Shown piece after piece: positions 59,428 through 64,000 of a stretch of DNA of 64,000 nt. Each line of letters opens with the position of its first letter. The first letter of the stretch is position 1. The notes beneath the pieces were generated by a model. It was not told the DNA's origin. It did not search any database and was given only the letters and a program-made list of their open reading frames with translations. The stretch is taken from NCBI RefSeq assembly GCF_038025025.1, contig NW_027117344.1, forward strand, positions 496,001-560,000, read 5' to 3'. Both the position numbers and the translations under genes were made by a program. This DNA is from Phyllosticta citribraziliensis. Taxonomy: Eukaryota.

Positions 59428-60619
59428 GTTGGCAGAGGTCACGGCCACCATCACAACCACCATGGTCCGTCGCCGCCGCTGATGACCACCCACCCTGCCT
59501 TGGCTGGTCTGGGCGATTCAGCGCAATCAGGTTGGCGGGAGACGCGAATGAATGGACATACGGAGGCGGCGGCTGCTGCTGCTGCTGCTGCTTCAGACGC
59601 TCGCTGGAGAAAGTTCCCAGTTTGTGTGCAAAAGGGGAGATGGCCGCGGCCGCGGCCGTGGCCGCCCAAGCCAGACGGCCAGCCAAACACCAGCAGCAGC
59701 GCAGCAAATGGAGTCAAGATGGACGACGAACGACGGGACGGACAGACCTTGGAGGGAAAGGCTCTCGTCCCTTGCATGCATGCCTGGCAGCCAGCGCAGC
59801 GCAGCAGCGCCGTGCCGTGCCGTTCCGCGCCGCCGGAAGCGCGCGGGCGGTCAGGTCGACAGACAGCTGATCGGTGACTGAACTGCGCGCTGGCTGGCTG
59901 GCTGGCTACCTGGGTACATACATTACGCAGGAACGGCGAACAGACGGGCGGGTGCGAAGGTATGTATGTGGGTGGGTGCTGCTTCGGATCGTGCCGAGGG
60001 AGGGATGGATGGGAAAAGTTTGGGTGAGGTGGCTGCTGCGCATACATGCGTGGGCTGATTGGTTGGCTGGCTGGACCGCTGGTACGTAGGTAGGTAGATA
60101 GTTGGGTAGGAGGGTGAGGGTGTGCAGGGTTCGTTGCGCAAGGAGAGAACGGCACCCGCGATCAACGGCTGCCGAGAGAGCGTTGAGGGACGTGGGTGCT
60201 CTGGAGACAGTCGACGTGGTGGCTGGCTGGCTAGCTGCTAGCTGGTTGGACGTGCGGGTTGGACGGATGGATGATGGGTGTTGAGGCGGTGCAAGGTGGG
60301 TGGTGCGGTGACGTGGACGCAACAACGGGCGGGACAGGAGAGGAGGGAGAAGAAGCGGAGCGCAGGAGGGGGGAACGGCGGGTACGACATTTATTTTGTT
60401 CCAAGGGTAATCGGACGATGCGTTGGCTGGTATCTTGGATGCCCTGAGGCGGTGCTGTGCGCTCATCTGTGTCCACCCCTTGCTTTGCTTGCCGCTTGCC
60501 GAAGGAGTACGTTGAAAGGGACACGGAGCCGCGGGACTGGTTTGGTGGAGGGGAGATCGGCGGCGCATCTCTGGACCGGTGCGAGGGTGCGTCTTGCGGC
60601 GAGCGGACTGGCTGCTTGC

Positions 60620-61327
60620 TTATGCCTTCTTGGGCTCTAGAGATTCGGTGGCAGCGGAGGCAGCGCCGTTCGTCTTCTTGTCCTCCCCGAATCCAAGGTT
60701 TTTCATCTCGTCAGGAGCCATCAGGTTGCTAGAGAGTTTGTTATCAGTCCTCATGTCCTTTCAAGGGGCGCCCCATTTGCGGGGTTTGCCGTCTCATAGA
60801 TTGCGGTTGTGGTGTTGAGAATGGGGGCCGGATGACTTGCGTCATACCGTTTGGCCGGGTATGTCTTGCAATTGCGGCGACGGTGGTGGAGGACATTTGC
60901 GCGCTTCGACAGGGGGCAATCGAGAGGGCGTGACTCACTGGTCCATGCGGCACTGGAGGTATGACTTTGCCAGCAGCCGGCATTCTTGGTCGTTGGTGCC
61001 TCTGTGGGTCTTCAAACAGCGCATGTACTGGCCCATGACGGCCTTGCATTCGCCTGGCGTGACGGCCTGTCAGTCTGGTGCCTTCTCTGCACATCTTGTC
61101 TCCATGTCGAACAATGGCAATAGTCGGGTCTGAGATGGGTTCTACGGGGGAAGGGGAGGTCGAGTTTGTGCGGCGTACCAAAGTGGTCGAGAGGGAAAGA
61201 TCCGCGTTCCGGCCTGAGATTCTCTCTGTTCAGCTCGCCACTCTTTGCGCCTGCGCCTGGGCGGGGATACTCACGGGATGGGCTTTTGGATCTTGACACC
61301 GCCCCCGGGGGCGCCGAAGGAACTCAT
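60620..61327 (-). CDS. COX19: Cytochrome c oxidase assembly factor Cox19 (twin CX9C), 103 aa; exons 61327-61275, 61213-61179, 61053-60939, 60728-60620
   Basis: Spliced product MSSFGAPGGGVKIQKPIPPERGSFPLDHFGECKAVMGQYMRCLKTHRGTNDQECRLLAKSYLQCRMDHNLMAPDEMKNLGF... Donors GTGAGT, GTACGC, GTGAGT; YAG acceptors; 312 nt in frame. Confidence 0.96.
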
Positions 61328-62240
61328 CGTGTTGGTGCCGAGGTCGAGGTTTGTTGGATTGGTGACGCGACGACGTCTGGTTGCGCGAACGTGCGAGTAA
61401 AGTTCGGAACCAACGCCACAGTTGCGCCACACATGGCAGATCCCCCGGATTTCTTCTCACCACTTCCGCCCGACCTGCGGTGCTCATCACCAACACCATC
61501 ACCATTGGCCAACGTCCCGTAAGCATTGTGCTCCCCCAGATTTAGATTCAAACATCATGCCACCCCCCGACAGCTCTCTCACCAAGGAAGAAACGACTCT
61601 ACAAGCACGCACTGCTCAAACGGGCTGCATGTTGCGATTGTCTTGTCCGTCAGCTCACTCAAAGCCTCCGTCAGAGCCAGCCATTGGAATTGATAGGCCG
61701 AATCACCAAGAACGGTGAGGGAGGGCTAGAAAGATGACAGGTCTTCATCGTCCGACTTGAACCTTGGCTTCATCGCGTCTTCGATCCCCGTCTCAAACAC
61801 TGTCTTGCATTCCCTTGCTGCCTCAGCTGCGTATGCAAACGCCACAAAGAAACGGCGCTCATGCATGGAGCTAAGGCAAGCCGTCTGTAGATTTGAAGAA
61901 AGCCTTGTGTCGCCGGTCAAGTTGAGCGAGAAAACGAGTCGATTCTTATTTCCTGGTCGAACTGCTGGGCTCGTTCACGAACCACCATTCGCTGTTTGAC
62001 TCGGAAGATTGCAATCTTAGTAGAGACTCCATGTGCTTGTTTCAGTCGTCAAGTTGCAAGCGGTGACGTACTTCGAAGCAGTAGGTAGTTGGCGGCCAAG
62101 CGCCCATCCTACCACGAGAGACAATGGGCTCATGTCGAAAACAGGATCAGTGTCCCAAAATTGCAATCCACTGACAGACAATCGCATCTTTTCCAAATTA
62201 TTCGTGCGCGTAGTAACTACGAGTTTAAGTCATTGAGGTT

Positions 62241-62488
62241 AGGCGCTGGATAGGGATGGATATGTACCACTCGGACCGAACACTTTACATCGCCCCCCTC
62301 CGCGCACCGGCTCGCTGGTGCAATGGGAGGGGGGCAAATTGACGGGGTCAGCGGCCAGTAGTGCGAGGGTGCCGCCAGTTCGAGTCTGGTCCGCGCCGCT
62401 GACTTTCCGATCGTGTACTATAAAACCTACCCGCGGGGAAAGGTTTGATATATCCCACGGACCGCCGTGGGTGAAGTTTTGCTCTTTT
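62241..62488 (+). ncRNA. Candidate structured non-coding RNA with tRNA-like T-arm/B-box (family unassigned; boundaries approximate)
   Basis: At least five helices in ~210 nt, including perfect 10-bp, 9-bp and 7-bp stems; G-U pairs favour the + strand; GTTCGAGTC B-box at 62378-62386; T4 tracts at 62477 and 62485; no credible ORF. Confidence 0.6.
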
Positions 62489-62939
62489 GTACTTTGCTGG
62501 CTCTAACCTATGTTTTCCTCGTTCGGCGACTTTTCTATGACTATCTTTCTTAGAGCAGCCGCAATCAACCCAATTCACGGTGTTGACTTGAGAGGACAAA
62601 CCTGAACAGCTGATGGCAATGCATTACCCTCATCTGCAATCAACGCACCAGATCATGAACAAGTCGGTCCGAGGCTTGGTAGCAAAGGTCACGGCATACA
62701 TATTCCCGATGTTCTGCGAGTTGCGGCTCGAATCTCGAATGCTCCCTAGCACTCTTCTTGTAGATGCTTCGATGCTCCTGGGTACATACTTTAGTCTAAG
62801 GTGGCTTCCATGCTCCCTTTAAGTTGCCTGTTGAAGCGTATGAATACTTCCAGTCTACAATAGTGTGTACCATAGCTTTAGCAAACAAGTCATGGTCCTG
62901 GAAGCAGTCCAAGTCAAAAGCACAATCTTCCAACAAGTC

Positions 62940-64000
62940 CTACCAATGCCTAACAACATACAAGACATTCCTCTCCCTCAACGCATTCAACACACCCCAA
63001 ACCCTCTTCCTCTTCACGCCCTCACGCCCCGCAATATCATCAAGTGCGTGCGCACCGTCGAAGTATTTTTGCAAGACGGGAAAAAGCTGGCGCACCTCGT
63101 CGTCGACCAAGCCGCGGCGGATGTGGTCGATCCAACGCGCCTCGAGCGAGTTTGCCTTCTGCGGGCTGTAAATCATGCGCGGTGTGTAGTCAGCCGGATC
63201 GTTGGATGCGTGCGAGTGCTGGTGGTGCGCGTGATGCGGGTGCGGCTGGAAGCCGGGCCGCAGCACCCCATTGCGCTGCGGTGTTGAGGGCGTGCCGTGC
63301 GGGTGGGAGAAGTCGGAGAGGGCTGTGAGCGAGGCGACGGAGTGCGATGCTTGGAGTGGTGAGTGGCGAAGGGCGGTTGGGGAGGTGTTGGTGGTGAGTG
63401 TCCCTCCCATGCCCGTCGTTTTTGTGCTGCGGTTGCTCTCGGAGTCGCTGTTGCGCGGCGACCGTCGATGCTGCGGCGTCGAGGGCGCGTCTTCACTGGC
63501 TATGGTTGCCCGGTCTGACGCGTCGTCTTGGTGGTCGAGTGCGGCGTGTCGTTCACGCGCGGCTGCCACGGCGGCTCTGGCTGCATCCTTGGCTTCGCGT
63601 TCCATGATTGCGGCGACGTCTGCTTGCACTTCTGCTGACACGCGGATCCAGGCAAAAGTACGGAGCTGTGTTACCCAGCCACCGCGCATGAGCCAGGCTA
63701 ATATGTCCATGTATGCGGAGCGGTGGTCTTTACTGGGAATGAGGGATCCATAGGTCCGTGGGGATTGATTCGAAAGGAGGCTGAGCATCTTTGGTAAAGA
63801 CGGAAGTGTTGGGAACCGGGAGGCATAGGTAGGAATGGCCTGAGGGAGCTTGCGCATGTCAGCGTTGGGAGAGACGATATAAGTGTCTCGCTGATGCAGT
63901 GGAGGTATTGCTCGAGCCCGTCTCCAGTATATCAAGTGCGCAGCGATGAACTCGAGATCTGCCAGTGGTATCTTATGTGCCAGAGCAGTCTTGTGGAGCG
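62940..64000 (-). CDS. NPR3: Nitrogen permease regulator 3 (GATOR1/SEACIT subunit), C-terminal part; gene continues beyond the window
   Basis: AAHLIYWRRARAIPPLHQRDTYIVSPNAD, LIPSKDHRSAYMDILAWLMRGGWVTQLRTFAW, KYFDGAHALDDI..REG, C-terminal VVRHW. The frame is open to the window edge. Confidence 0.93.
   Translation of the reverse strand, partial: LHKTALAHKIPLADLEFIAAHLIYWRRARAIPPLHQRDTYIVSPNADMRKLPQAIPTYASRFPTLPSLPKMLSLLSNQSPRTYGSLIPSKDHRSAYMDILAWLMRGGWVTQLRTFAWIRVSAEVQADVAAIMEREAKDAARAAVAAARERHAALDHQDDASDRATIASEDAPSTPQHRRSPRNSDSESNRSTKTTGMGGTLTTNTSPTALRHSPLQASHSVASLTALSDFSHPHGTPSTPQRNGVLRPGFQPHPHHAHHQHSHASNDPADYTPRMIYSPQKANSLEARWIDHIRRGLVDDEVRQLFPVLQKYFDGAHALDDIAGREGVKRKRVWGVLNALRERNVLYVVRHW

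Follow-up and report, generated by a model that had tools for sequence, protein, structure and literature searches.

Background

Low-copy, tRNA-related SINEs of 140-493 bp, which are transcribed and located in gene-rich regions, are described for Aspergillus fumigatus in PMC5063351. For budding yeast, PMC3395662 and PMC4228148 document extra-TFIIIC (ETC) sites and the influence that Pol III complexes exert locally on intergenic transcription by Pol II. A leader-trailer interaction in MALAT1 is reported in PMC8457004, and the Arabidopsis GUT15 RNA, a lncRNA made by Pol II, gives rise to a tRNA-like molecule that is not autonomously transcribable, according to PMC6152437.

Here we analyze a locus from the fungus Phyllosticta citribraziliensis that resembles each of these systems in part. 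The window, by which we mean the whole analyzed stretch of 64,000 nucleotides (contig NW_027117344.1, positions 496,001 to 560,000 of the forward strand), contains an element of 248 nt at positions 62241-62488. A sequence-only reading of this element had proposed a highly structured noncoding RNA with a perfect tRNA T arm. The feature is real and conserved, yet it is not the large, highly structured noncoding RNA that was proposed. Its functional core would be a module of ~145 nt on the + strand (about 62344-62490), smaller than the whole 248 nt, and the unit within it is best filed with the known tRNA-derived Pol III-type elements.

Gene context and transcription of the region

The element lies between two genes of the minus strand, and a spliced transcript of the + strand runs between them:

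60941-61326, - strand: CHCH-domain (COX19-like) gene with introns, ATG near 61326 (Pfam CHCH 3.6e-07 on exon 60941-61051)
61944-62144, + strand: exon (at least 61944-62080) and GT..AG intron (62081-62144) of a spliced transcript (contigs of run X1)
62940-63998, - strand: 3' part (C-terminus) of the NPR3 gene (Pfam NPR3 1.6e-59, HTH_NPRL3 1.1e-16)

These Pfam matches support both neighbors that had been assigned to the element, COX19 and NPR3; the CHCH-domain gene is the one that we take to be COX19, from its N-terminal motif. At least three short introns interrupt this gene, and Pfam scans of whole ORFs miss the CHCH domain as a result. The NPR3 protein has relatives in Aplosporella (71%), Saccharata (66%), and Lasiodiplodia (63%), which places the DNA with a Dothideomycete close to Botryosphaeriales.

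The ~1.6 kb between the COX19-like gene and NPR3 looks noncoding, since neither the ORF over the element (62318-62503, + strand) nor the minus-strand ORF 61729-61974 had relatives in the protein collection. Another minus-strand ORF, 62351-62599, was considered as a coding candidate and rejected, its single match being to a repeat protein and attributable to chance. A frame of 82 codons on the minus strand (61726-61974) has a gene-like look, has no protein relative, and runs antisense to the spliced + RNA; we think it unlikely to be a gene. In organism E, the flank 61900-62086 has a likeness of ~84% and carries single-base indels, which argues against coding.

Run X1 matches the window without differences. 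One of its contigs skips 62081-62144 (depth 85), and an unspliced contig spans the same positions (depth 150). A contig of 1319 nt begins at 62145 (depth 524), passes the element and continues into the NPR3 coding sequence; it may merge transcripts of both strands, and such contigs give neither the strand, the ends nor the level of an RNA. No matching sequencing run is recorded as RNA. From the spliced and unspliced contigs and the GT..AG borders on the + strand we conclude that run X1 contains RNA and that a Pol II transcript of the + strand exists. The element region is transcribed: contigs of run X1 cover it, as the sequence-only reading had asked of transcript data. The spliced + transcript is apparently noncoding, with no long ORF across the splice 62081-62144 on direct reading. 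It runs toward the element, diverging from the COX19-like gene and converging on NPR3, and its intron lies 200 nt upstream of the unit described below.

Composition of the element

The following parts were distinguished:

62261-62275 with 62406-62422, + strand: bulged closing stem of a three-way junction, weak (minimum-energy fold)
62288-62339, + strand: GC-rich hairpin, a 10-bp stem around a 7-bp hairpin (fold and shuffles)
62292-62301/62326-62335, + strand: 10-bp perfect stem (stem search)
62304-62321, + strand: inner hairpin (predicted folds)
62344-62406, + strand: putative tRNA-derived unit, a small hairpin and a T arm within a 9-bp perfect stem (stem search, fold)
62347-62355/62395-62403, + strand: 9-bp perfect stem, extendable by three G-U pairs (9-12 bp in total)
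62361-62372, + strand: small 4-bp hairpin with two G-C and two G-U pairs, loop GAGG (predicted folds)
62362-62399, + strand: head module, 38 nt, common to another locus
62374-62390, + strand: T arm, 5-bp stem with one G-U pair, loop TTCGAGT (folds, exact match)
62391-62398, + strand: CCGCGCC plus G, a 7-nt run resembling the 3' strand of an acceptor stem and a discriminator-like G, directly after the T arm (direct reading)
62423-62446, + strand: hairpin AAACCT/AGGTTT (stem search, fold)
62450-62490, + strand: tail module, 41 nt, a hairpin followed by two T4 runs (stem search, motif scan)
62454-62460/62465-62471, + strand: 7-bp perfect hairpin CCCACGG-ACCG-CCGTGGG (stem search)
62477-62480 and 62485-62488, + strand: two T4 runs (motif scan)

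All stems named in the sequence-only reading were thereby recovered, including the bulged closing stem, which is present in the minimum-energy fold of the + strand. The T arm is canonical, as first described, with its 5-bp stem, G53-C61 closure and TTCRANN loop. The small hairpin stands directly 5' of it with one base between them, and it pairs on the + strand only. By direct reading, seven possible G-U pairs on the + strand become A-C on the minus strand, in agreement with the asymmetry of wobble pairs pointed out before. The predicted fold of the unit is a three-way junction with no D or anticodon arms. Further downstream, the arms 62419-62428/62441-62450 are imperfect, being 90% complementary.

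With respect to possible Pol III stops, the + strand has no T4 run within 62241-62476, for which we estimate that ~0.5 would be expected by chance. The A4 at 62422-62425 is a T4 for a reading of the minus strand.

tRNA likeness and searches against known families

The 3' part of a class II tRNA consists of the long variable arm, the T arm, the 7-nt acceptor strand, and the discriminator. The head module 62362-62399 opens with the small hairpin that precedes the T arm, and its last base is the one after the 7-nt strand and the G. Since the order of small hairpin, T arm, 7-nt strand, and G matches the class II layout, we infer that the head derives from the 3' part of a tRNA with a long variable arm, in which the hairpin 62361-62372 would be the variable-arm-like part. 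The sequence-only reading had offered a tRNA-derived element as its alternative, and it is this alternative that the layout of the head supports.

The B-box consensus served for comparison with the T arm. The T arm DNA matches the B-box core GTTCGANTC, and the core GTTCGAGTC is intact in it. An A-box-like GGCCAGTAGTG is found ~25 nt 5' of the B-box; read directly against the consensus it is approximate and fits poorly, as had been conceded for the A-box from the beginning. A D-arm-like GGCCAGTAG lies just upstream, near the 5' strand of the unit.

The expectation that the element belongs to no known family agreed with the scans. Rfam gave no match on the element on either strand at lax thresholds (E up to 10; stretches of 6001, 551, and 81 bases), nor at the gathering score when the whole window was scanned. 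The four weak Rfam matches from the lax scan of 6001 bases fell off the element and far below the cut-offs. The Rfam tRNA model gave no match at E up to 10 on 6001, 551, or 81 bases, and ARAGORN reported no tRNA genes in 60000-64000 or in the whole window. By hand, no anticodon arm could be placed, and neither a D stem nor a 5' acceptor strand matching CCGCGCC was seen.

Elsewhere in the window, a GC-rich run of GCT/GCG triplets at 59550-59670 produces long frames in several frames on both strands and a spurious weak Rfam match (isrG, 13.6 bits).

Other candidates were set aside. A tRNA with a long intron would need a partner for CCGCGCC; a complement of 6/7 at 62242-62248 is about what chance provides, and the anticodon arm is not placeable. 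HDV-like and hammerhead ribozymes, box C/D and H/ACA snoRNAs, Sm-class snRNAs, and a retrotransposon primer-binding site were rejected on reading the sequence. A telomerase RNA was rejected with no template for TTAGGG repeats and an intergenic space of only ~1.6 kb.

Folding compared with chance

Perfect stems of at least 9 bp (loop 3-60) numbered 10 in the window, compared with 14.0 +/- 3.8 in 20 first-order Markov simulations of it. Fold energies were compared with those of 200 shuffles for each segment. For the whole 248 nt, the z-score was -1.66 on the + strand (12 of the 200 shuffles as good) and -3.11 on the minus strand (1 of 200). The segment 62288-62339 reached -5.40 on the + strand and -5.57 on the minus strand, with none of the 200 shuffles as good. 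In contrast, the T-arm unit (62343-62407) scored -0.95 on the + strand, where 31 of 200 shuffles were as good, and -1.96 on the minus strand, and the 3' part (62404-62490) scored -0.10 and -1.02, respectively.

The description of the element as highly structured therefore holds by these scores for the hairpin 62288-62339 and fails for the T-arm unit and the 3' part. As thermodynamic features the stems are weak, except for this GC hairpin. The closing stem, and with it the large three-way junction that had been built on it, is without statistical support; moreover, the change of 62264 G>A in organism C would break one of its pairs unless compensated.

Scanning of both strands of the window located one hairpin of the T-arm type (five stem pairs, G/C closure, TTCRANN loop), against two such hairpins in 506,680 bases from other fungal loci. 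Such a hairpin is uncommon, but this is not decisive.

Conservation in related organisms

The comparison with other samples used contigs of runs X1, X4 (organism C), X5, and X9 (organism E). Pieces from X9 are absent on 62087-62346 and 62410-62800, and those from X5 lie within 62287-62525 only; these gaps carry no weight. In organisms E, F, G, and others, only two of the 25 sampled words were present, and small shares of this kind in runs outside the comparison were given no weight as evidence.

Conservation of the region had been set as a test by the sequence-only reading, and the outcome was positive. In organism E the unit (62347-62409) is ~97% alike: the individual pieces have one other letter over 62347-62393, two over 62364-62409, and one over 62364-62408. 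The flank 61900-62086 of the same organism is ~84% alike, with 30 other letters and six gaps in 187 nt. In one contig of organism E the unit stands twice in tandem, the copies being 21 letters apart, and the stem strands are preserved in each. Judged from these aligned letters, the unit is under stronger constraint than the flank in at least one relative. In organism C (X4), the pieces of the element are 89-95% alike and the flanks ~89-90%. Over 62145-62798, X4 yields two sets of contigs, ~90% and ~95% alike, and the sample could be a mixture of two haplotypes, strains, or species.

Among the changes listed, five are fully supported inside 62241-62499; the list shows 40 of 105 single-letter differences in total, so that invariance of the stems cannot be claimed from it. 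Four of the five fall in loops or linkers, namely 62311 (C>T in organisms C and D), 62461 (A>G in relatives), a loss of four nt at 62254, and an A inserted behind 62335. The fifth is the change at 62264 in organism C, in the weak closing stem.

More distant fungi were represented by 80 NPR3 loci. In these, blastn and nhmmer found no match beyond words of 15 nt, and the loci contained no tRNAs and two T-arm-like hairpins. One of the latter (2907-2923 on the minus strand of locus L009, an unrelated fungal metagenome contig, ~500 nt downstream of NPR3) lies within a coding gene, in a stretch that looks like an intron, and is ascribed to chance. A covariance model of the unit, run on the 80 NPR3 loci, recovered only the window itself (99.9 bits); a match of 17.7 bits at locus L048 was rejected as a relative, being without a T arm. 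The 24-nt core had no matches in metagenome contigs.

Partial copies at other loci

The head (62362-62399) recurs at another locus, where it is doubled. In record 5 of run X1 the two copies stand 96 nt apart with zero and two other letters, and in record 10 of run X4 (organism C) they stand 97 nt apart with zero and three. The doubled head is thus seen in organisms A and C. Its flanks in both records are unlike the window, and the likeness of the head to other loci stops at 62399. After the doubled head, both records contain a 21-nt piece of the tail (62469-62489).

The tail (62450-62490), with both T4 runs, is present in record 6 of run X1 and record 13 of run X4, each with five other letters in 41 nt. 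The letters before this paralogous tail resemble 62425-62446 with indels. Compared by eye in a loose end of 30 letters, the paralogous arms read CCCT/AGGG against ACCT/AGGT in the window, which is possibly one compensatory pair. Directly after the tail, the loose ends of both paralogous contigs continue in GC-rich, coding-like sequence. The paralogous pieces in run X1 lie inside long contigs (3155 and 4570 nt).

Altogether, the head and/or the tail are found at at least two other loci in two organisms, with a middle that differs, and from this sharing of letters we regard the module as a member of a small family. The GC hairpin 62288-62339 and the closing stem are outside the modules common to other loci, and any link between them and the unit would be tentative. 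The 64-kb window holds no second copy. A search for target-site duplications between 62180-62350 and 62470-62560 returned only four T-rich 6-mers as direct repeats; an old insertion could have lost its duplications. Many dispersed, SINE-like copies had been named as the outcome that would count against a new RNA; the few partial copies found push the interpretation toward the SINE-like or relic end.

Interpretation of the element and its alternatives

Overall, the element is probably a small tRNA-derived unit that is read or bound by the tRNA transcription machinery, as opposed to a new RNA class. As a specific form of this, we tentatively favor a low-copy, tRNA-derived unit of the TFIIIC/Pol III type, SINE-like or a tRNA relic, and would grant it somewhat less than an even chance. 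It is favored because the head and the tail are kept across loci while the middle differs, which is the pattern of an internal promoter and a terminator. The + strand without a T4 between the head and the tail runs, and the wobbles that are G-U on this strand only, are in its favor as well. It also draws on the likeness and the tandem doubling of the unit in organism E, on the layout of the head and its single T arm in the window, on the fully supported changes, four of five of which spare the stems, and on the precedent of the Aspergillus fumigatus SINEs.

Under the favored reading, a tRNA with a long variable arm would have lost its 5' half, so that the 3' part remained. A new stem of 9-12 bp would have closed this tRNA remnant, with two hairpins and two T4 runs placed after the head. 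TFIIIC would bind the B-box of the head; transcription by Pol III would begin a few tens of bases farther 5' and terminate within the T runs, giving a small tRNA-like RNA of ~140 nt. A second possibility is that the complex itself, once bound, would separate the tandem minus-strand NPR3 and COX19-like genes and limit the noncoding transcript of the + strand. TFIIIC binding, initiation and termination by Pol III, and the barrier role are all predicted steps.

Several observations weigh against the Pol III-type unit. The element lies inside long contigs of run X1 together with a spliced + form, and Pol II alone could explain the RNA cover. The A-box is poor and would stand only ~25 nt from the B-box, the fold of the unit is unremarkable against shuffles (z -0.95), the Rfam tRNA model is silent on the 81 bases, and the window offers neither a target-site duplication nor a second copy. 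T4 is a weak Pol III stop in fungi.

The involvement of Pol II is central to a different explanation, unlikely in our estimate, namely that the unit is a tRNA-like processing signal inside a noncoding Pol II transcript, like those of mascRNA/MALAT1 and GUT15. The spliced + RNA would extend into the unit, with cleavage by RNase P on the 5' side of the unit and by RNase Z on its 3' side; the upstream RNA would end just after the GC hairpin 62292-62335, and a tRNA-like RNA of ~60 nt would be released. In favor of such an arrangement are the GT..AG intron upstream, a contig that extends from 62145 through the element, and the position of the GC hairpin, which alone is strongly stable and directly precedes the unit; leader-trailer G-U pairs can also lengthen the acceptor-like stem. 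The unit is not a cloverleaf, however, and the four nt (CCGC) between the T stem and the long stem would interrupt the coaxial stack of acceptor stem and T arm, which is what RNase P and RNase Z measure. A processing signal also leaves the conserved tail with its T runs unexplained, and the GC hairpin stays outside the modules common to other loci.

That the element is a decaying relic without function, composed of old tRNA or SINE fragments and chance GC-rich palindromes and transcribed passively, seems equally unlikely to us. Stems of this size do occur at chance frequency, the overall z-score on the + strand is only -1.66, and neither Rfam nor the tRNA searches gave a match; in organism C the element pieces (~89-95% alike) scarcely depart from the flanks (~89-90%), and the 80 distant fungal NPR3 loci yielded no relative. 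Neutral decay is nonetheless difficult to reconcile with organism E, where the unit is ~97% alike against 84% for the flank and both tandem copies keep the stem strands, and with the head and tail modules kept at other loci around a middle that differs.

We consider it quite improbable that the locus acts at the level of DNA only, as an ETC-like site with no productive Pol III whose role between the COX19-like gene and NPR3 is that of a boundary or roadblock. The B-box core is intact and conserved, and it sits between two tandem minus-strand genes in the path of the + noncoding transcript, as such a site might; yet the conservation over the whole 63-nt unit, in which the two strands of the 9-bp stem are covered, together with a tail 60-100 nt away, exceeds what a B-box needs.

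Helix P4 of RNase P and MRP RNAs has a bulged U. An active minus strand, that is, a structured NPR3 3' UTR or a minus-strand RNA such as an RNase P/MRP-like one (GGAAAGUC, possible partner UGACUU), is very improbable: the whole region does fold better on this strand (z -3.11 vs -1.66), an X1 contig joins the element to NPR3 coding sequence, and coding-like GC-rich sequence directly follows the tail in the loose ends of both paralogous contigs, but the T loop and all seven wobble pairs are sensible on the + strand only, no RNase P, MRP, or other family matched either strand at lax thresholds, GGAAAGUC is part of a local 9-bp hairpin in which its pairing would leave out the bulged U, and the tandem doubling of the unit fits an RNase P/MRP-like RNA poorly.

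Possible significance

If the unit binds TFIIIC or yields a tRNA-like RNA, it would be a tRNA fragment re-used in filamentous fungi, possibly as a small-RNA gene, an RNA-processing signal, or a barrier between closely packed genes. These three uses are known from yeast, plants, and mammals and, to our knowledge, hardly charted in Dothideomycetes. Should the element be no more than a relic, it would be a commonplace product of decaying tRNA genes or SINEs.

A bolder proposal, which we put forward as speculative and unlikely, is that Botryosphaeriales-like fungi have a lineage-specific family of small structured RNAs. Its members would combine a half-tRNA elbow, a variable middle, and a conserved tail of hairpin and U tracts. 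Their source would be either Pol III, acting from the relic B-box, or spliced noncoding RNAs of Pol II that are cut in the manner of RNase P/Z. By the latter route, if true, it would be the first fungal counterpart of MALAT1/mascRNA and GUT15. Among the literature matches listed, none described such an element in Botryosphaeriales or a mascRNA-like system in a fungus. With its pattern of head, variable middle, and tail, the family should be easy to find once genomes are searched.

Comparison with known systems

With mascRNA of MALAT1 and the tRNA-like molecule of GUT15 (PMC6152437), the unit shares a tRNA-like fold of ~60 nt that bears a T arm; it may also, like them, lie within a spliced noncoding Pol II transcript. 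Those RNAs form cloverleaves recognized by RNase P and RNase Z, whereas the unit is without D and anticodon arms and has a 4-nt linker.

Class II tRNA genes show the same succession of small hairpin, one base, 5-bp T stem, loop TTCGAGT, 7-nt strand, and G. Unlike them, the unit lacks an anticodon arm, a D stem, and a 5' acceptor strand that would match CCGCGCC, and it is missed by ARAGORN and the Rfam tRNA model.

For tRNA relics of budding yeast, ZOD1 is the case for comparison. The yeast relics and the ETC sites (PMC3395662) have in common with the locus a conserved intergenic B-box without a functional tRNA, which may act on neighboring Pol II transcription. The element differs from them in its longer conserved structure (stem, small hairpin, and tail) and in its several partial paralogues.

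There is also a likeness in general organization to AfuSINE2 (PMC5063351), which likewise joins a tRNA-related part with Pol III promoter features, here putative, to a tRNA-unrelated extension. Low copy number, gene-rich location, transcription, and a size in the AfuSINE-type range of 140-493 bp are also shared. By comparison with AfuSINE2, only the 3' part of the tRNA is recognizable here, no target-site duplication was found, and no LINE-like tail or simple-repeat end is apparent at the locus. In further contrast, the element has stayed at its orthologous position, with strong conservation of the unit from species to species, which suggests an old copy, possibly exapted, and not an active element.
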